NCBI GenBank assembly: GCA_022822185.1
Contig: JAJECE010000050.1
Span: 63,650-127,649 of the forward strand
Reading direction: 5' to 3'
Length of the DNA: 64,000 nucleotides
Origin: Rhodothermales bacterium
Lineage (GTDB): Bacteria; Bacteroidota; Rhodothermia; Rhodothermales; Bin80
Positions 1,409-40,279 of this stretch are shown here, one piece after another; the first letter of the stretch is position 1; each line of letters begins with the position of its first letter. The notes under the pieces were generated by a model. That model was not told where the DNA came from, made no database searches, and saw only the letters and a program-made list of their open reading frames with translations. The position numbers were made by a program, and so were the translations under genes.

Positions 1409-2119
1409 GCCTGCTGGTGCCTCTTCATCCGACTTCTGTAATAGGCATGAATGATCGGATCAGGAATAGGTATGTTGGGCATACTGGAAGTAAGCCCCCA
1501 TCTTTCCAGAACCCCCGGTTGGTGTCCCTGATAGCATTCATACCAGGGCGTTCCCACCTGATGCGTCAGCGTGATCAGTTGCCCTCCGCTATATCGTGTG
1601 TAATTCTCGTATACCCATTTTAGCCCTTTGACTACCTCTGGATGCTGTTTCTCGAATTCCACCAATTCGGAAGACCTAGTATCCCCGCGGCATCAAACCG
1701 GAATCGTAGTAACCATTGGATCGGACAATCTTTGCAAAAAAATCAAACACATTGATCGGTTGATCGCCATAGGATTTTAGCATGTGATAGACCCCTACGA
1801 CAACAGGCCCGTATTTCCAGGCCTGAATCTGGTTATTGCGATTATCAATGAGAGGTCTGCCGAAAACTCCCAGTATCCAGCCATGCGCAATATAGACCAG
1901 TTTATTGATCTGAAGTGGGGTTAAGGCTCTTCGATCATCCTTGAACGCAGAATGCAACATATACAGCACCACCTGCCCCTCCGGTAAATAGGGGGCATGA
2001 ATCATGCCGTTTTTGATCCCATTCGAACGAAGCGATGTGTCGGAATGCATAGAGATCTCATTCCCTGCCTGAGACCTAGATACTTGGGAGGATGAGGACT
2101 TCAGAGTCTCCCGTGCCAT
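1405..2119 (-). pseudogene. Panacea (SocA/DUF4065/GepA-like) antitoxin, split by a 1-bp frameshift near 1683-1686
   Basis: N-half 'LTPLQINKLVYIAHGW...QAWKYGPVV..VY'; C-half 'VYENY...GGQLITLTH..GTPW...IPDPIIHAYY' in the next frame; removing one G of a G4 run joins them (..MPRDTRSSELVEF..). Confidence 0.8.
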
Positions 2120-17122: not shown

Positions 17123-18330
17123 TTACCTGCTTGATTTTCGCTGATTGCATTTGCTGCAGAGTACCTGACAGTTTTCTATCACGGTACGCCCCCTTTTACC
17201 CAGGGTTCAATGTGATCCGCCTGAGCATCCTCCCAGGGCATCTCATCTTCCTGTGGATCAATGCATGCAAAATCGTGGAGCGGTTGTATCTGATACGCAC
17301 ACAATTTGCCCTGCTGTTGCCAGACTGTCTCCCGCGTTTCCTCATCAAAAAATCTCGGTTCGAGGATCTGCGGATTCCTCTCCCCTTCTAGGATATATTG
17401 GTAGATCTGTCCTTTCTTTTTGAGTTCGGGGTAGTCTAGCATCTCCTGTGCACGCGCATGTGTGTGCTCGGTATCATACTGCTGCTCTCTGTAGTTTGCA
17501 TAGCGCATCCCCCAGTTGGGCTGCCCCATGATAGTACGCAGTCTGCTCGCATCTGATTTTTTTTTGCGTTGAGCAGATGCCACATTAAAAAGAGAAGCAA
17601 CCCATGTATGTACCTGCAGATAGTAGTCCCAGAGATCTTCGGCATTCTCTCTGTTACGCTTACACTGCATATAGGTGAGTATCTCCCTGTCATCCTTCGT
17701 CCCCAAACGCCAACGCAGAATCCGTTCAAGGTGCTGCTGGCGTTTTCTCTGACCATCCAGTAGGTCATTGCACAGAATCGTCTGTCCGGCTGTTGTTGAT
17801 GAGAAGTATGTTTTTGCTGAAGCGACCCAGGGACCGTCGCAAAGAGCATTCCGCACTTCCTGATTGGTTAGCTCCGCCGCCCCCTTATTGATGATCTTGA
17901 ACCACATCATGTAATCGTCTCCCGATCCCTCCTCGCAAAAACACACCAGGATTGCATAATCCATGAAGCGTGCATGCATTTTGTCATTGACCTCAACCTG
18001 ATCATAGATGTATGACTCTCCGTCTAGATCAACTGCAAAGGCACTGTCTTTGACAAAGTCGCAAATTGTTCGGAGGCGCTGCTGCCCGTCAAGTACGCTG
18101 TAAAAACCGGGGGTCTCTTCGGCGAAATATATCAAGTTGATCGGATGTCCGCGATACACTGACTGGATCAGAGGAACCTGCCATTTGGCATCCCCTGATC
18201 GGATGTGCTCACGCTGGCAGGAGGGCGTAATGTTCAACTTTTCGCCTCAACCGATTACGCTGTCGTCCTCTCGAACCTGATAGCCGTCAACGATCTCACT
18301 GATCTTGATCTGCTCTACATGTATTTTCAT
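17123..18330 (-). pseudogene. DUF262 + HNH endonuclease, disrupted by an in-frame TGA (18247-18249) and a frameshift in a G5 run (17189-17193)
   Basis: MKIHVEQIKISEIVDGY..VIG*GEKLNITP.CQRE, DGQQR, 'FKIINKG..LTNQE'; HNH 'ADHIEPWVKGG' continues in another frame as 'RTVIENCQVLCSKCNQRKS'. Confidence 0.85.
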
Positions 18331-18334
18331 TGAT

Positions 18335-19327
18335 CTATCTTTTGTGACGGATTAAGATACGGGCGTATTTCTTCTTTCCGTTTATGTAGGGGTACCCAAA
18401 ATTAAACTCCGTGATCTTGGTGGTGGCCATCTGCCCCAATATCTCGAATTGTTCCGGGTTGTACTTATCCAGGAAGGTAATTGGCACCCCCATCGCACCA
18501 TCGTAGTCACGCGGGATTTCGACGGTCTTACGCATCTCAATGGCATTATAGTTATCGTAGTGCGGATACTCCTCAAGGCTGTAGTCTTTGTACAGCACCA
18601 TTTTTCTGTTGCGCTTCGCATGAGGAAGATTCGTAAACCAGATGCTTTGTGATCTTCCCTTAACAGTGCCGTCAACTATCTTGTAAGCACTGCCTTCTTT
18701 TCTGGTTGCGATTAATTCATCAGCATAATTCTGGGGTACATCAAATAGGAGGTCTCTGCTCATGGGCGTATTCCCCACCCACAATCTACCGTCTCTAATC
18801 AGCGGAAATATCTCTTTATAGGTAATGGCATTTTTGTTGCCAATAATCAGAAATTGCTTCTCATGCCTCATTAGTTGGGCAACATACCCGCGAAAGAGTG
18901 AGAACGGTGGGTTCGTGCATACGATGTCGAACTGCTTTAGCAGTTCAATACATTCCGCACTCCTGAAGTCCCCGTCTCCCCGCAGCAGGGTCACATCAAT
19001 TTCGTGCCGGTCTGCTCGTTTGTTGCCATCGCGATCACCTGTGTACTCCATCATAACCGCCCGCTCAGAGTTATGCTGACTGAACAGATCCATGTTCTGG
19101 TTTTTATAGCATGTGTCGATGAGCCTCTTCAGCCCTAACGACTCGAAATTATCACTGAAGTACTTCCAGAAATTGGATACCCGTAGATCATCACAGTTGC
19201 AGTAGACCGTCTTGCCCGTGAAGTGATCTCGGTAGTGTCTGACTTCGTTTTCGATGTCCCTGCGCTGCGTATAGAACTCATCATTCTTTGCCCGCTTCGC
19301 AGCGTTGACGTTTTGGTTCTGTGCCAT
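18335..19327 (-). CDS. EcoRI-family adenine-specific DNA methyltransferase
   Basis: 'AKNDEFYT', 'VYCNCDD', 'GDGDFRSAEC', catalytic 'TNPPFSLFR', 'MGVPITFLDKYNPEQF'. Confidence 0.9.
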   Translation of the reverse strand: MAQNQNVNAAKRAKNDEFYTQRRDIENEVRHYRDHFTGKTVYCNCDDLRVSNFWKYFSDNFESLGLKRLIDTCYKNQNMDLFSQHNSERAVMMEYTGDRDGNKRADRHEIDVTLLRGDGDFRSAECIELLKQFDIVCTNPPFSLFRGYVAQLMRHEKQFLIIGNKNAITYKEIFPLIRDGRLWVGNTPMSRDLLFDVPQNYADELIATRKEGSAYKIVDGTVKGRSQSIWFTNLPHAKRNRKMVLYKDYSLEEYPHYDNYNAIEMRKTVEIPRDYDGAMGVPITFLDKYNPEQFEILGQMATTKITEFNFGYPYINGKKKYARILIRHKR

Positions 19328-19913: not shown

Positions 19914-20585
19914 TCAGGTCAGGGTAAAGACAAAGGTCAGAGATGTGATGACATTGACGGGAACTCCCTTGAGTTGACCAGGCAGAAACCGTGCAAATTG
20001 AACGGCCCGCAGAACTTCTTCATCGCATCCCGCTCCCAGCCCCCGGATCACTGTCGGGAAGCGGACATGTCCATCTTTATCAATGATGAAGGCTACGGTC
20101 ACCTGTCCCTCAAGGCTTGCCCGCCTCGCCCGTTCTGGATATCGAATTTCTTTGACCAGACTTTCCATGTTGCCGAGTAGGATTGGGATCTGATCTAGAA
20201 AGTCAGATAAATCCGGCAGGTTGTCGTATCCGCGAAAAGCGACCGGCATCGTCATTTCTATACGGGATGGCTGCAATCCAGCACGACGGGTGGAGAATCG
20301 ACTATATCGGATGGACTGAATCGCTTTCTGTTTTATCATCTCGTCTGATCCCTGAGTAACAACAGGGTTCACGATCTGTCCGGTCTGATCCACAATAAAG
20401 GATACGAACACATGCTGATTCTCTGCTCCATTGTGAGGGATTAGAGGGGGCCCCTTGATCATGCTGAGAAACTCTGAAGGCTTCCTGTTGATTTGATCTA
20501 CTTCCTGTAATGTCGCCTTAGGTGTGACACATGCGCTGAAACCTAGGCCAAGGAAGATGGCAAACAGTACGGTGATGCGGGTCAT
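19914..20585 (-). CDS. Lipoprotein with two tandem TonB C-terminal domains
   Basis: Lipobox FSAC; 'VSFIVDQTG' domain and 'RYPERARRASLEGQVTVAFIIDKDG...GCDEE' domain. Confidence 0.8.
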   Translation of the reverse strand: MTRITVLFAIFLGLGFSACVTPKATLQEVDQINRKPSEFLSMIKGPPLIPHNGAENQHVFVSFIVDQTGQIVNPVVTQGSDEMIKQKAIQSIRYSRFSTRRAGLQPSRIEMTMPVAFRGYDNLPDLSDFLDQIPILLGNMESLVKEIRYPERARRASLEGQVTVAFIIDKDGHVRFPTVIRGLGAGCDEEVLRAVQFARFLPGQLKGVPVNVITSLTFVFTLT

Positions 20586-20916
20586 GATAGTCTCCAGATA
20601 CGCCCACCTTGGTGGGCTGGTTTAGGTCATGAGCGATTAATTTTAACACTCTCTTAACATTGAAGTAACAATAAGATAATACATTTTGTCCAATATTGCA
20701 AGAAAAGCCGATCATGGGTACTTCTTCCACGCTGAATCGATGAGGATCGGGCAGGAACACAGGGATGGCGTTCCAGGAAATGACCGTGTACAGCTACGCT
20801 CCTGACGAAGGGGTCATCAAGGGCGATGTCCGGGAGGAGATGCCGGTCTCACAAATCCGAGATCAACCCGTCCAGTGTTGATACACGCGAATGATTTCTG
20901 GAGGAATGGAGGCGAT

Positions 20917-21310
20917 TCAGTATAGCTTTCCTACCACAATCGACATTTTCATTCTCCCGTTCACGGCGCGGCTATCTTGGTGACCGGGAGTGCATCTTAC
21001 CTATTTGGTGATGAGCCGGATTACGTCCGCATTGCAATGCCGATCCGTACCCCGATAAAAGGATCACGCACATTCCCATTCTGATCTGTAACGAACTGTA
21101 TGATGATTCGCCTGATTACATTGCAACACGCGCTATGGTCTAGATTCTGCAATAGTACGTCAGGTTCCACAGTCAAGTCTGACGGCCTATCAATCACCTC
21201 ATACACTTCGGGTAATTCACCCGTATTCAATGGAGACAGGACGGATTGAGATGTGCAGCCGGCACACACAACAGCGAAGACAGGAAATAATAGAATTTCC
21301 CTTTCGTAAT
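20917..21310 (-). pseudogene. Decayed TonB-C lipoprotein copy
   Basis: 'LLFPVFAVVCAGC...IIIQFVTDQNGNVRDP' then, after a frameshift, 'HCNADVIRLITK*VRCTPGHQDSRAVNGRMKM'; no clear start codon. Confidence 0.7.
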
Positions 21311-21479
21311 GCAGTCAGCAGTTCTAATTTGAACTCCATTGAACCGTATCCGCTGATTCCAGGATCCTCCTGCACAGACAGAATTCTCTCTAATCCGAAC
21401 GACTGGTTCAGGTATACGGGACACTTGGTTCAGGAATCATTGCAGATCTATGTCGAGAGGTCATTGCGTGGATGAGACA

Positions 21480-21869
21480 TCATTGAAATGCGACAGGAAG
21501 AGTAAATTTCACCTTTACCAGCTCTCCGTTTAGCCGTCCTGGAATAAACTTGGCATGTTCTCGAACAACCCGGATTGCTTCCGCATCACAGGCAGGACCA
21601 AGGCCTTCAGGAACAGAGGGGGCAAGCACATTTCCATTTTCGTCCACGGTAAAATACACATCCACACGCCTCCACATCTTCGGGGAGTTCTCACGACACG
21701 CACGATGATTGACATGCTCTTGCAATCCGGCAATCCCTCCAATCAGTTGTGGCATTTGGCCACCGGGAGTGGAAACCGTCTCGGAAGGTAAAAACTCTGT
21801 TAAGGGTTGAGGTGTGCCGCAGGCGCTCACGCCAACGAGGAGCAGGAGTCGCAGGAGAGTACGGGGCAT
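21480..21869 (-). CDS. Short TonB-C-domain lipoprotein (divergent, YP motif lost)
   Basis: Lipobox VSAC; 'QMPQLIGG...VYFTVDENG...ACDAEAIRVVREHAKFIPG...VKVKFTLP'. Confidence 0.8.
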   Translation of the reverse strand: MPRTLLRLLLLVGVSACGTPQPLTEFLPSETVSTPGGQMPQLIGGIAGLQEHVNHRACRENSPKMWRRVDVYFTVDENGNVLAPSVPEGLGPACDAEAIRVVREHAKFIPGRLNGELVKVKFTLPVAFQ

Positions 21870-22042
21870 GATCTACGATACATTCTATGGTCACTGTCGC
21901 TAAACAAATATAATGCCCGACCTCAAAAAAAAACAACTCCGTGCAAATCTCTCCTGCCCAAGGACACCATGATTTACGAACGGCCCCATCTGTGCTGACC
22001 AGTATTCTTTTGACCGGGATATGCTCCGGTTAAGGATCAAAA

Positions 22043-22079
22043 GATATGCCCTGCACCTCAAACAGGCACAGGGCATATC
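22043..22079 (-). terminator. Hairpin after a TonB-C copy, paralogous to the tonB terminator
   Basis: GATATGCCCTG...CAGGGCATATC. Confidence 0.6.
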
Positions 22080-22097
22080 CATTGGACGGGGGAGGAT

Positions 22098-22478
22098 TCA
22101 AGTCAATTTGAACGTGATTGGAAGTGTCATCTTCACATTTACGGCACGGCCATCCTGACGACCGGGTGTGAATTTTGCATGCTCATTCAGGACTCTGATT
22201 GCCTCTTCATCACACCCCCCGCCGAGGCCCTGTACAATGGAAGCATCACGCACATTTCCCTTTACGTCTACAACAAACTCTACAATAACTTTTCCCTCAA
22301 TGCCCGCCATACGGGCGATCTCAGGGTACGTCGCATTTGTCAGCAGACTATTTATGCCTCCAATGAGTTCAGGCATCTGCTCAACCGTTTCAAAAATTTC
22401 AGAGTCATCAACCGATTCAGACGTACTGCAGGCACTGACACTAATGAGAATGAAGAAAAATAACAGGGTACGGATCAT
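22098..22478 (-). CDS. Short TonB-C-domain lipoprotein
   Basis: Lipobox VSAC; 'YPEIARMAGIEGKVIVEFVVD...GCDEEAIRV'. Confidence 0.85.
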   Translation of the reverse strand: MIRTLLFFFILISVSACSTSESVDDSEIFETVEQMPELIGGINSLLTNATYPEIARMAGIEGKVIVEFVVDVKGNVRDASIVQGLGGGCDEEAIRVLNEHAKFTPGRQDGRAVNVKMTLPITFKLT

Positions 22479-22724
22479 GGAAGTAGATTTCTATAGTTGG
22501 ATTTCAATGACCACCAAAGCGAAGTTCAAGGTCATCATGACTAAATCTCTTGCCTGCCATGACAGATCGCTCAATCCTCTGGACGAGAGATCTCAACGAT
22601 ACAACCACCGACCTATGCACATCACACAGGGGGCTTTCCGGCAGGAAAGGGCTGCTGAAAGGGGTAAAAAATATTCTCTGCATCTTCGACAGGAACAGGA
22701 CAGATCTGTGGCAATGATGGTCAC

Positions 22725-23105
22725 TCAACTCAACTTGAATATGACCGGAAGTGAGAATTTCACTTTTACCGGGTGCCCATCTTGTCGACCGGGAACGAAT
22801 TTTGCGTGTTCCTTCAGGACTCTGATTGCCTCTTCATCACAGCCGGAACCAATGCCGCGCACTACGGAAGGATCGTACACAGTGCCATTTTCATCCACAA
22901 TAAACTGTACAATCACTCGGCCTTCCACCTTCATTCTGCGAGCAATCTCAGGATATCTTACCTTGGCCTGCAGCCCTGCAAAGCCTCCAATCAATGCAGG
23001 CATCTGCTCAACCATTTCAAAGGCTTCAGAATCATCAACCGACTCTGACATACTGCAGGCACTGACACCAATGAAGATGAAGAAAACTAACAAAATGCGG
23101 ATCAT
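22725..23105 (-). CDS. Short TonB-C-domain lipoprotein
   Basis: Lipobox VSAC; C-domain aligns closely by eye with the tonB C-terminus. Confidence 0.85.
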   Translation of the reverse strand: MIRILLVFFIFIGVSACSMSESVDDSEAFEMVEQMPALIGGFAGLQAKVRYPEIARRMKVEGRVIVQFIVDENGTVYDPSVVRGIGSGCDEEAIRVLKEHAKFVPGRQDGHPVKVKFSLPVIFKLS

Positions 23106-23289
23106 GGAAATAGATTTCTATAGTCTGGGTTTAAATGACCGTCAAAACGAAGTTCAAGGTCATTACGAATAAATGTCCTTCCATGACGGGTTGCTCAATT
23201 CCCTGAGCGATATCACAACAGTACCATCACCGAACCTATGCGCACACGAGAACTGTCCTTCTGGCAGAAAAGGATTTCTGTCATGGGCC

Positions 23290-23330
23290 AAAAAAATGCC
23301 CTGAATCTTAGGAAGGTGCAGGGCATTTTT
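23290..23330 (-). terminator. Intrinsic terminator of tonB
   Basis: AAAAAAATGCCCTG...CAGGGCATTTTT. Confidence 0.7.
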
Positions 23331-23346
23331 CTTGAAAAGTAACGGA

Positions 23347-24012
23347 TTAACGCAACTTGAACTGAATTGGAAGCGAGAATTTTACTTTCACCGGGCGACC
23401 ACGCTGCCGTCCAGGAATGAACTTGGCATGCTCGGTAATGACTCGGATTGCTTCCTGATCGCAACCACCCCCAATACCGCGCACAACCGTAGGTTCGCTC
23501 ACATCACCGTTTTCATCAACGATAAACTGCACAATCACGCGACCTTCCACATTCGCCTTACGTGCGATTTCAGGATATCTTGCTTTAGACTGCAAGCCCG
23601 GAATTCCTCCAATCAATTCAGGCATCTGCTCAACAATCTCGAAGATTTCAGGCTCCTCAATCACCTCTTCTTCTTCCGGTGGAGGTGGCGGTGGCGGAAC
23701 ATTGATCGGCGCATCCAAGTCAAGCGAAGCATCAAGATCCAACTCGTCATCTTCCAGGATCTCGTCATTTGGGACTTCCACTGGAACAGGGGGACGCGGA
23801 GGTGGCGGCGGCTTTTGAATTTGCTCCGTCTGCAGGATTTCCTCCATTTGGACAACTTCCTGCTGAACTTGCTCAATTTCCATCGCTTCCCCACGTTCTA
23901 GGTTTGCGTTGAACGCAAGAATGAGCAAGAGGAGTGAAGCGATCATTCCAACCTGGACAAAGAAGCCGTAAGTTCGTTTTAGATCGGCTGCTGGAGCCTT
24001 ACGTAATGCCAT
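23347..24012 (-). CDS. tonB: Energy transducer TonB
   Basis: N-terminal TM anchor, poly-Pro linker, YP motif and TonB_C domain. Confidence 0.92.
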   Translation of the reverse strand: MALRKAPAADLKRTYGFFVQVGMIASLLLLILAFNANLERGEAMEIEQVQQEVVQMEEILQTEQIQKPPPPPRPPVPVEVPNDEILEDDELDLDASLDLDAPINVPPPPPPPEEEEVIEEPEIFEIVEQMPELIGGIPGLQSKARYPEIARKANVEGRVIVQFIVDENGDVSEPTVVRGIGGGCDQEAIRVITEHAKFIPGRQRGRPVKVKFSLPIQFKLR

Positions 24013-38089: not shown

Positions 38090-38278
38090 GGGAATGCAAA
38101 AATCACAATTTAATCATTGATAGTGAAGTTTCAAAGTTCAGTATCTGGAGACGGCCCCAAGCGATGAGCACAGTGAGCAAGAACGATGCTACAGGGGTAC
38201 GTTTGGTATACATGCCAAAAATATGTATTTTCGGATCATACAACTCTTTTCTTAACATGGACAAATCAATCGCTTATC

Positions 38279-40279
38279 ATGCCAACAGTTGACAGCATTC
38301 TCGTTAACATAGCCGCCGAGAAGCTCATTCTTCCGGAATTTCAACGCGGATATGTTTGGAAGCGGAGGCAAGTACGAGATTTCTTTGACTCACTGTACCG
38401 GAAACATCCAGTAGGAAGTCTTCTCACATGGACCACTAAACGAGATGACGTTCATGTAGATCTATTATTGGATGGGCAGCAGAGAGTAACTTCGCTCTAT
38501 GGTGTGATTAAAGGCAGTCCCCCTAATTTCTTCTCTGGAGACGAAAAGGCATTCAAAGGCCTCTATTTCCACGCTATAGAAGAAAGGTTTGAATTTTATC
38601 AACCAATCAAAATGAAAGGTGATCCATTCTGGTTTGACGTGACAAAGGTCATGAAAGCAGGACCTGGTGGGATAGAAAACATCATACTTGAACAATGCGC
38701 AACTAATTTTGACTCGCCCGAAACTACTTCACAGTTGAAATTGCAGATTAAAATTGGACACCGCCTAAACCGTTTGCTTGATTTACGAGAAAAGGATTTC
38801 CATATTGACGAAGTTATAGCCAAGGAAGGTGAATCTGATGAAGTCGTTGATATTTTTAACCGCTTGAATAGTGCAGGCACCCGATTATCAACGGGTGATT
38901 TGGCACTGGCGAAAATTTCTGCAAAATGGCCGAACGCAAGAGAAGCAATGCGCAAAAATGTCAGAAAATGGAAAAAACAGGGCTTCTACTTCACACTGGA
39001 TTGGCTTTTGAGATGTGTCAATGCGGCCGTACATGGAGAGGCAGCTTTCCGACACTTGCACACCACCCCACGAGATACATTCGAAAATGGACTTAAAAAG
39101 ACTGTTGTGCATGTGGATGAGGCACTGAACCAGATTGCAGTTAAGCTGGGACTAGATCACGACCGAGTACTGTTTGCCAAATATGCGATTCCCGTTATCG
39201 TTCGGCATTTGGAATTGCACGAAGCTAAATTCCTGGACCAGAAAGAGTGGAACTTGCTGCTCTACTGGTACTTGAGGGCGGGAATGCATGGACGCTTTTC
39301 CGGGAGTACCGAAACAAAAATCAAGCGAACTTTGGAAAAGATTGACGGCACACCAAAAGGGATAGAACGGCTGCTTGCAGAGATTGGGACGACCTGGGGG
39401 CGTCCTCAAATTATTCCCGCTGACTTTGACTCCTGGTCAATCGGGGCCTACTCCTATCCGATACTCTACTGGATGACGAGAATGGGCGGGGCCAGAGATT
39501 TTTGTACCGGAATTCAACTTAAGACCGGGCTACTGGGGAAGGGGGCAAAATTGCAGGTTCATCATATCTTCCCCAAAGCGGTACTTTATAAAGCAGGATA
39601 CCCGCGGCCCCAAGTGAATGCAGTTGGAAACTTCTGCTTCCTTACCGCGAATTGCAATCAATGGATCAGCGCTGCTGCACCGGCCGAACCCTCCAGATTT
39701 GTGAAAGGGAGTCATGATGATGACCTTCGCCGCATGGGTACAGAAGGATACTTCCCCTGGGTTCAAGAGCATCACCCGGAAGTACTGGAATCTCAGTGGA
39801 TTCCGATGGATGCGGAGTTGTGGAAGGTTGAGAATTACCCTGATTTTCTAGAGGCGCGACGTCAACTGCTGGCAGACGCTGCAAACAGGTATTTAACGGA
39901 ACTCAGTCCTGAACATTCCCAAAATAAAGATACTGCCTATGGGCAACGCAGTGGAATTGCACCGTCCAAACCTGATTCCCATATTTCCAGTGTCGACGAA
40001 GAGGAGGAATTGAAAAATCTTCAAACATGGATGGCATCCCACGGACTGCCGGCCGGTGAATTCGGCTATGACTTGGCGGGCGAGTCTGAAACTGGTAATC
40101 GTGTAATCATCGACTTGGCCTGGCCGAATGGGATTCAAGAGGGGCAGGGACGGCCTGTGGCACTGCTTCTGAATGAGCCCGCTGAAACCTATCAGATCGT
40201 CAACCAGACCGGCTATGACTGTTACATTGATGTTGGCACCTTTAAGCAGTACGTGAGAGACACAATCATTGGAGAATGA
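38279..40279 (+). CDS. GmrSD-like (DUF262 + DUF1524-type) modification-dependent restriction enzyme with extra C-terminal domain
   Basis: 'PEFQRGYVW', 'DGQQR', 'IFNRLNSAG', 'HHIFP...NAVGNFCFL..CN'. Confidence 0.8.
   Translation: MPTVDSILVNIAAEKLILPEFQRGYVWKRRQVRDFFDSLYRKHPVGSLLTWTTKRDDVHVDLLLDGQQRVTSLYGVIKGSPPNFFSGDEKAFKGLYFHAIEERFEFYQPIKMKGDPFWFDVTKVMKAGPGGIENIILEQCATNFDSPETTSQLKLQIKIGHRLNRLLDLREKDFHIDEVIAKEGESDEVVDIFNRLNSAGTRLSTGDLALAKISAKWPNAREAMRKNVRKWKKQGFYFTLDWLLRCVNAAVHGEAAFRHLHTTPRDTFENGLKKTVVHVDEALNQIAVKLGLDHDRVLFAKYAIPVIVRHLELHEAKFLDQKEWNLLLYWYLRAGMHGRFSGSTETKIKRTLEKIDGTPKGIERLLAEIGTTWGRPQIIPADFDSWSIGAYSYPILYWMTRMGGARDFCTGIQLKTGLLGKGAKLQVHHIFPKAVLYKAGYPRPQVNAVGNFCFLTANCNQWISAAAPAEPSRFVKGSHDDDLRRMGTEGYFPWVQEHHPEVLESQWIPMDAELWKVENYPDFLEARRQLLADAANRYLTELSPEHSQNKDTAYGQRSGIAPSKPDSHISSVDEEEELKNLQTWMASHGLPAGEFGYDLAGESETGNRVIIDLAWPNGIQEGQGRPVALLLNEPAETYQIVNQTGYDCYIDVGTFKQYVRDTIIGE

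Follow-up and report, generated by a model that had tools for sequence, protein, structure and literature searches.

Control of TonB-dependent uptake is generally ascribed to the expression of the transporters and to a single or a small number of energised TonB proteins. Why, then, should a bacterium keep a row of further genes for TonB C-terminal domains next to its canonical tonB gene? This question is raised by a locus of an uncultured Rhodothermales bacterium (GenBank assembly GCA_022822185.1) which lies in a stretch of 64,000 nucleotides (nt) of contig JAJECE010000050.1, positions 63,650 to 127,649 of the forward strand. This stretch is called the window in the following, and coordinates refer to it. 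As far as sequence comparison allows, our analysis showed that the array consists of tonB-derived paralogues which keep only the C-domain that binds the TonB box, and in which a predicted lipoprotein signal replaces the energy-coupling half.

The tonB array and its members

A preliminary description of the window had proposed that canonical tonB is followed by five genes for TonB C-domains, among them a pseudogene and a two-domain form of 223 amino acids (aa). Open reading frames (ORFs), Pfam matches and three-frame reading agreed with this layout. All six elements were found among the ORFs of the window where the description had placed them, and all genes of the array lie on the minus strand. 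The elements and the features between them are as follows.

23347..24012, minus strand: tonB, canonical, 221 aa, with an N-terminal membrane helix, a proline-rich linker and TonB_C at residues 121-221 (ORF and Pfam)
23290..23332, minus strand: intrinsic-terminator hairpin of tonB with a U tract (folds at -17.8 kcal/mol with z -4.87; none of 200 shuffles folded as well)
23106..23346, minus strand: tonB-m1 spacer, homologous over its whole length to the m1-m2 spacer (alignments)
22725..23105, minus strand: m1, predicted lipoprotein of 126 aa (MIRILLVFFIFIGVSAC...) with a short acidic tether and one TonB_C domain
22479..22724, minus strand: m1-m2 spacer with a degenerate terminator remnant (-7.6 kcal/mol, z +0.47) and the second inverted repeat
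22098..22478, minus strand: m2, predicted lipoprotein of 126 aa (..ISVSAC..) with one TonB_C domain
22038..22084, minus strand: strong terminator hairpin of m2 (-33.1 kcal/mol, z -7.11), homologous to the tonB terminator (alignment)
21480..21869, minus strand: m3, predicted lipoprotein of 129 aa (..VGVSAC..) with a diverged TonB_C domain, the YP motif replaced and an extra cysteine
about 20917..21293, minus strand: decayed fourth small copy (three-frame reading)
19914..20585, minus strand: m5, predicted lipoprotein of 223 aa (..LGFSAC..) whose N-terminal TonB_C-like domain is degenerate and whose C-terminal TonB_C domain is well kept

Five of the six submitted proteins matched the Pfam family TonB_C (PF03544), all of them above the curated cut-off of 24.6 bits. 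The E-values were 5e-20 for tonB, 5e-22 for m1 (78.5 bits), 1.4e-22 for m2 (80.3 bits), 1.6e-9 for m3 (38.5 bits) and 3.6e-26 for m5 (91.8 bits), which was matched in two stretches. The TonB C-terminal model of NCBIfam agreed, but m3 reached 21.2 bits there and thus stayed below the curated cut-off of 27.1. The 82-aa ORF fragment of the decayed copy had no match in Pfam; it matched a profile built from the local TonB_C domains with an E-value of 8e-6. On three-frame reading this copy shows a lipobox remnant (VCAGC) but no start codon, and its reading frame is shifted and also interrupted by an in-frame stop.

It had also been proposed that the similarity to tonB declines with the distance from it. 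Accordingly, the C-domains of m1, m2, m3 and m5 were 77%, 67%, 54% and 45% identical to that of tonB, respectively. The first domain of m5 showed 29% identity to tonB and has lost the YP motif. Besides, long ORFs on the plus strand run antisense to m1 and m2 (22168-23172, 334 aa) and to tonB (23332-23901, 189 aa); the repetition of the coding sequence has probably given rise to them as a side effect.

A predicted lipoprotein signal in place of the coupling half

The intact copies m1, m2, m3 and m5 begin with one basic residue and 11-13 hydrophobic residues, which are followed by VSAC, VSAC, VSAC and FSAC, respectively, with the cysteine at position 17-19. These lipobox calls were made by eye against a PROSITE-type rule. 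In the small proteins about ten mostly acidic or polar residues come after the lipobox and lead directly into the C-domain. In m1 and m2 the acidic stretch lies close behind the lipid cysteine (C-S-M/T-S-E-S-V-D-D-S-E). Moreover, the lipobox cysteine was invariant in all 12 aligned orthologues of the two-domain m5 type, and the genome contains one match each for Lgt and LspA above the cut-offs.

In the alignment m1-m3 lack any equivalent of tonB residues 26-120, a stretch of about 95 residues, and with it the periplasm-spanning, proline-rich linker. A membrane helix like that of tonB is also absent from the lipoprotein copies, as the hydrophobic run, read by eye, ends in the lipobox cysteine and the acidic stretch comes next. 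In our own reading, runs of 11-13 residues would be too short for an uncleaved membrane anchor. Since the copies lack both the N-terminal helix and the proline-rich linker, they would have no route to ExbB and ExbD. Alignment, Pfam and the by-eye lipobox reading thus bear out the earlier proposal that a lipoprotein signal has taken the place of the membrane anchor and the proline linker.

This is the difference from canonical TonB, as known from E. coli, Pseudomonas and Helicobacter (1u07, 2gsk, 2grx, 6i97, 5lw8). The C-domain is the same by profile, sequence and predicted fold, and so is the last strand, i.e. the one that pairs with the TonB box. The copies differ in having no N-terminal membrane helix and no proline-rich linker, and in carrying the predicted lipoprotein signal instead.

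Fold and binding end of the C-domain

The AlphaFold model of m1 was confident from residue 31 on, with a predicted local distance difference test (pLDDT) value above 90 for 89 residues. When this model was compared with the PDB by Foldseek, the best match was 6i97_D, the TonB C-domain in the FoxA complex (E 5.5e-6, target TM-score 0.83). The 17 best matches, or 19 if TolA domain III is included, were TonB or TonB-like C-domains, and those taken from transporter complexes comprised 6i97_D, 9dc4_T, 2gsk_B and 2grx_C. The model of m5 had a mean pLDDT of 62.5. It reached about 80-89 over most of the C-terminal domain, and its N-terminal half was too weak to describe the packing of the domains.

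We then compared the copies at the 57 positions that are invariant across 20 tonB C-domains of the genus. Of these residues, 46 are kept in m1, 48 in m2, 36 in the m3 family and 35 in the m5 C-domain. The last, C-terminal beta-strand is present in all copies. In the literature a YP motif before the first long strand is described as the most conserved feature of TonB_C. This motif is present in tonB, m1, m2 and the C-domain of m5, and it is absent from m3 and from the N-domain of m5. In m3 and its relatives (G003, G006, G017) the YP region has become H-V-N-x-R-A-C, which places a second cysteine beside the conserved one of the GCD motif, and a disulfide is possible in copies of the m3 type. A further change is shared by all single-domain copies and the multi-domain forms: in the motif PGRQRG, which is invariant in tonB, the second arginine is replaced by aspartate (residue 109 in m1 and m2). 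This charge reversal sits in the loop before the last strands. A complex prediction for residues 18-126 of m1 and residues 32-100 of a transporter with a TonB box (contig C18) gave a score of 0.00, which, having no controls, weighs neither way.

Tandem units and spacers

When the array is cut at the beginning of each C-domain, units of 622, 627 and 624 nt result, which contain a C-domain, the terminator, the spacer and a signal peptide. The tonB unit and the m1 unit were 74% identical over 620 aligned bases. Since this identity extends over coding and non-coding parts, the resemblance within the array is not due to chance. The best-conserved part of the unit, with 84-88% identity between these two units, lies just upstream of the start codon and in the signal-peptide region. 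This is more than expected from the synonymous distance (dS) of 0.89 between m1 and m2, so that the stretch is either constrained or was homogenised more recently.

The idea that the terminator of tonB was copied along with the gene held only in part. A homologous hairpin follows m2, but after m1 there is only a degenerate remnant (-7.6 kcal/mol, z +0.5), and folding and alignment gave no terminator hairpin after m3 or m5. An Rfam search of the spacers gave no riboswitch and no small RNA; a weak match to mir-3121 (E 0.58) is simply the terminator hairpin of m2.

Upstream of m1 (23135-23163) and m2 (22507-22535) we found the inverted repeat ATGACC-N17-GGTCAT. In the whole genome the pattern ATGACC-N13-21-GGTCAT occurred at three sites, compared with about two expected, and two of them are those in the m1 and m2 spacers; the search thus revealed no regulon. 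The repeat might serve m1 and m2 alone, either as an operator or as an RNA hairpin. A promoter scan gave four sites against 5.3 expected by chance and none before m1-m3, with a consensus that may not fit this phylum.

Relatives and origin of the copies

The tonB neighbourhoods of 19 genomes of the same genus and one genome of the sister genus were compared with that of the window. These 21 loci were annotated with the local-domain profile; G000 denotes the genome of the window and G005 the nearest genome. A tonB orthologue of 220-221 aa was present in all 21 loci, a two-domain lipoprotein like m5 in 15 and small single-domain forms in seven (G000, G003, G005, G006, G017, G022, G023). Seven other genomes carry, in the same place relative to tonB, a form of 261-379 aa with two to three TonB_C domains per chain, a tonB-like N-terminal helix and no proline linker (L041, L048, L051, L052, L054, L055 and L057 of G001, G010, G015, G016, G018, G019 and G021, respectively). 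The copy in G016 is interrupted. These helix-anchored multi-domain proteins may act as alternative TonBs whose proline rod has given way to several domains in a row.

The anchor sequences of these forms are alike to different degrees. That of tonB reads FFVQVGMIASLLLLILAF and that of the helix-anchored multi-domain forms FSVQIGLIVALLLVSSILLIS. A small form of 151 aa in G022 (L058:2222-2677) has the anchor LLVQIGAIAALPLLILAC, a tonB-type helix that ends in the lipobox-like LILAC. By its sequence, this form seems to stand midway between a membrane anchor and a signal of the lipoprotein type. The genus thus offers a series from full TonB through the helix-anchored linker-less multi-domain form and a helix ending in a lipobox to short lipoprotein signals, which shows how an energy transducer can become a passive binder. 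In other families of the order Rhodothermales there are tandem full-length tonB paralogues.

A maximum-likelihood tree of the domains was built from 67 rows and 101 columns, from which six degenerate N-domains that had passed the length filter were left out. All extra domains fell into an unresolved group with the tonB C-domains of their own genus, with the sister genus outside of it (96/89). One clade (100/100) was made up of the two-domain form and another (98/85) of the helix-anchored multi-domain form. A further clade (97/94) united m3 with seven other small lipoproteins (8 rows; G003, G006, G017, G023). The copies m1 and m2 stood on separate long branches, and many forks stayed open with 101 columns.

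Judged by this tree the copies are derived from tonB, as the preliminary description had held. Its further claim that they were spawned from the 3' half of tonB has to be modified. Because of the anchor intermediates in the siblings, i.e. the linker-less helix forms and the LILAC helix, and because of the tandem full-length tonB paralogues in other families, an origin from whole-gene duplicates of tonB, followed by loss of the linker and conversion of the anchor, appears to fit better than copying of a bare 3' half. The conversion of a helix into a signal rests here on G022 and the helix-anchored forms. The signal peptides of m1-m3 resemble the tonB helix only weakly (FFxxxGxxA), and we do not claim that they were derived from it.

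Recombination has left traces in the relatives. P0004, the m1 orthologue of a relative (90% identical), has the tonB state at seven of seven positions at which m1 and tonB differ within one tract, and is m1-like outside of it. In an RNA-library contig of a relative, a patch of 90 nt within m1 is identical to the tonB of the window (22855-22944 compared with 23477-23566); this contig alone could be an assembly chimera, and the protein record P0004 is independent of it. Judged by these patterns, gene conversion from tonB into m1 takes place in the relatives, and recombination is ongoing.

The following course of events explains these findings best. A tandem duplication of tonB would have come first, after which the copies would have lost the proline-rich linker and their N-terminal helix would have been shortened to a signal peptide ending in the lipobox cysteine. 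Unequal crossover between paralogous C-domains would then multiply the unit of about 625 nt, and gene conversion from tonB would keep the nearest copy most tonB-like. This course, with growth and homogenisation of the array by unequal crossover and gene conversion, is in part shown by the comparisons given here.

A dispersed member of the small-lipoprotein family lies on contig C129 of G000 (L006:1223-1734). It has the signal MTRIFLLFSIVIGTSAC and is split across two frames, either by a frame shift or by an assembly error. Open frames of 169 and 159 aa, located elsewhere in G005 and G008, look like intact counterparts of this copy. In addition, unrelated genes are inserted in the stretch between tonB and the lipoprotein genes, one of 492 aa in G006 (L045:2925-4403) and one of 475 aa in G010 (L048:2360-3787), and the locus therefore accepts insertions.

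Selection and expression

The preliminary description had named dN/dS across relatives as a test, with neutral evolution speaking against a function. We observed purifying selection on the intact copies. Compared with G005, the ratio of nonsynonymous to synonymous distance (dN/dS) was 0.06 for tonB (17 differences), 0.24 for m1 (11), 0.30 for m2 (6), 0.26 for m3 (16) and 0.16 for m5 (32). When m1, m2 and m3 were pooled, the ratio of the corresponding proportions (pN/pS) was 0.26 with a one-sided Fisher p of 1.2e-4. In more distant comparisons all seven pairs of the two-domain form gave values of 0.09-0.20, and all four tonB pairs gave 0.03-0.04. Two of three pairs of small lipoproteins from other genomes were saturated at synonymous sites, and the third gave 0.52. 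Between the paralogues tonB and m1 we found a dN of 0.16 with a dS of about 1.5; their split is therefore old and the copies have been kept for long.

The decayed copy served as an internal control. It was broken already in the common ancestor of G000 and G005 and has since acquired separate deletions of 43, 15 and 1 nt, of which the 43-nt deletion in G005 lies over the signal region. The stretch around it is 91.7% identical between the two genomes, compared with 94.7-97.5% for the other spacers. Since dN/dS is low in the intact copies while the decayed one gathers insertions and deletions, the intact copies are, on this comparative evidence, functional genes, and the constraint on them is relaxed but clear.

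An RNA library from a sponge metagenome contained a contig of 2,068 nt from a close relative which spans tonB, m1 and m2. Short contigs of low depth in the same library cover m3, the decayed copy and m5. These contigs are a weak sign of expression.

Possible function of the lipoprotein copies

What could such proteins do? The preliminary description had suggested inhibitors or decoys, assembly factors and binding scaffolds as conceivable roles. The best explanation overall, which we put forward tentatively, is that they are lipoproteins tethered to the outer membrane that bind TonB boxes without energising the transporter, and so compete with TonB or gate its access. The genome of 3.7 Mb has at least 46 Plug-domain matches, and thus about as many TonB-dependent transporters, and encodes three helix-anchored TonB-like proteins; the ExbD genes lie on other contigs than the array. 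The copies would be exported, lipidated by Lgt and cut by LspA. A tether of about 10-15 residues would then hold them, most probably at the outer membrane's inner face, where the intact last beta-strand would pair with the TonB box of TonB-dependent transporters. Having no helix for ExbB and ExbD, a copy could not pull; it would occupy or hold the TonB box and thereby compete with TonB, gate it or hand over to it. As the copies have diverged to different degrees (77, 67, 54 and 45%, with the YP motif lost in m3), they may serve different subsets of the 46 or more Plug-domain transporters.

Binding of TonB boxes at the outer membrane is suggested by two precedents and by the short tether, which suits a target in the protein's own membrane. 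In E. coli free TonB fragments competitively inhibit energy transduction (bioRxiv 10.1101/2022.09.26.509584). Llp of phage T5 is described as a small lipoprotein at the inner leaflet of the outer membrane which binds and locks the transporter FhuA. According to this description Llp works in the way proposed here for the array copies, as a small lipoprotein that binds a TonB-dependent transporter. However, Llp is encoded by a phage, and no sequence relation to it was found in PHROGs.

Several points weigh against the proposed binding of TonB boxes by outer-membrane lipoproteins. The m2 orthologue P0006 has no lipobox cysteine, and lipidation may therefore be dispensable for a m2 copy of this type; the related protein P0019 (124 aa) carries a plain signal peptide. 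The YP motif is, as described above, missing from m3 and the N-domain of m5. In this lineage the proteins may also be sorted to the inner membrane, and residence in the outer membrane is only predicted; from an inner-membrane anchor a domain on such a short tether could not reach the transporters. A constitutive inhibitor of a heavily used uptake system would be costly, and we found no regulator. Besides, the dN/dS values of the small copies are 4-8 times that of tonB, so their constraint is relaxed. The RNA contigs may include DNA and indicate presence only, i.e. neither transcription nor strand nor level nor ends, with uncovered parts being uninformative.

A more specific version of competition at the TonB box, which we consider unlikely, is that the array is a set of diversifying chromosomal TonB decoys tethered to the outer membrane, each of which locks a subset of transporters and so bars phages, bacteriocins or unwanted cargo or rations the proton-motive force. 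Such decoys would amount to the cell's own equivalent of phage lipoproteins like T5 Llp, and would have arisen from tonB repeatedly. Somewhat less doubtful is that the copies act on other partners, namely on the TonB C-domain itself by forming heterodimers that park or sequester TonB, on the periplasmic domain of ExbD, on peptidoglycan or on a cargo, and that they tune the cycle or receive cargo. The TonB homologue FusB is reported to bind its ferredoxin cargo directly, and PDB entry 9hi3 was among the fold matches of m1. The charge reversal in PGRQ(R to D)G, which all single-domain copies other than tonB share, hints at a changed partner surface, and the loss of the YP motif in m3 points in the same direction. 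Nevertheless, m1 and m2 retain the last strand and most of the tonB-invariant residues, nothing indicates any particular alternative partner, and the comparison of the relatives' loci revealed no partner gene conserved beside the array.

In Bacteroidota many lipoproteins reach the cell surface by being flipped, and the array proteins might in principle be displayed there with the TonB_C fold binding outside ligands. This is improbable. We know of no outside ligand of a TonB_C domain. The acidic stretch of m1 and m2 just after the lipid cysteine would agree with surface display, since acidic residues behind the cysteine are reported to serve in Bacteroidetes as a signal for export (Lauber et al., PMC5080379), and secreted multi-TonB_C proteins are abundant in databases. 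However, the acidic residues are off the positions of the consensus, m3 and m5 have no such stretch, and a signal of Bacteroidetes may not be used by Rhodothermales. It is highly improbable that the copies are functionless by-products of a recombination hotspot which decay like the fourth one. One copy of the array is indeed a pseudogene and the dispersed C129 copy is frame-shifted; the 21 loci of the genus and its sister carry between none and three or more copies, and G007 and G020 have no extra TonB_C copy within the stretch fetched. This explanation is largely refuted by a dN/dS that is clearly under 1 in each intact copy with sufficient differences, by the long retention that the tonB-m1 distances indicate and by the conservation of the two-domain form in 15 of 21 loci. 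The true pseudogene, moreover, shows what decay looks like at this locus, i.e. insertions, deletions and loss of the start.

If the copies do bind TonB boxes at the outer membrane, they would add a new level of control at the periplasmic face of the transporter, exerted by a naturally selected family of TonB tips which cannot be energised. To our knowledge, the same effect has been seen in E. coli solely with overproduced TonB and with proteolytic fragments of TonB.

Relation to known TonB_C proteins

Proteins with two TonB_C domains per chain, as in m5, have been described in B. thetaiotaomicron, namely TonB9 (BT3896) and TonB10 (BT3898), and their architecture is said to be confined to Bacteroidetes (PMC10350073). 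In contrast to these, the first domain of m5 is degenerate, and m5 is a short predicted lipoprotein.

An exhaustive search of metagenomic protein collections with an m1 profile gave 60,795 representatives at E <=0.001. Among the best 150 of them, 149 had two to seven TonB_C domains by the local profile, and many began with a short signal-like sequence. A crude lipobox rule was met by only four of these 150, one of which was the cluster of m1 itself; the N-terminal classes of the representatives were assigned by crude heuristics. Like the array copies, the secreted multi-TonB_C repeat proteins carry TonB_C directly behind a signal peptide and have no coupling half. They differ in that they are mostly multi-domain proteins with ordinary signals or long membrane N-termini, whereas separate lipoprotein genes stand beside tonB here. 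Close full-length matches to m1 and m2 were few, with at least five proteins of 124-126 aa at a query cover of 95% or more among the best 120 of 435. By tblastn, relatives of TonB_C were found in nine phage records at 33-43% identity, all of them unannotated.

Proteins with TonB_C behind a signal peptide, or without the motor half, are thus a kind already known and common in databases, yet unstudied. In the literature searched, which left most papers in subscription journals outside its coverage, we found no study of lipid-anchored stand-alone TonB C-domains. What is new is that TonB-family paralogues without the coupling half form a recombining lipoprotein gene array beside tonB. Since motor-less TonB_C proteins are very common among Bacteroidota-like metagenomic proteins and also occur in phage records, a function found here would explain many unannotated entries that are named energy transducer TonB.

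Neighbouring genes and other features of the window

Searches for the lipoproteins in collections of defence and phage families gave no hits: PADLOC returned 0 families for m1, m2, m3 and m5, and PHROGs returned 0 families for all four. Elsewhere in the window there are two further genes of note.

1676-2119, minus strand: SocA/Panacea antitoxin-like protein
38186-40279, plus strand: second GmrSD_N protein

The array is followed immediately downstream by a type II restriction-modification pair at 17179-19327 on the minus strand.

18335-19327, minus strand: EcoRI-type adenine methyltransferase (PADLOC type II methyltransferase model)
17179-18237, minus strand: GmrSD_N/REase_II-like protein (PADLOC restriction enzyme model)

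In place of this restriction-modification pair, most relatives have rpiA and two genes for FtsX-type permeases.

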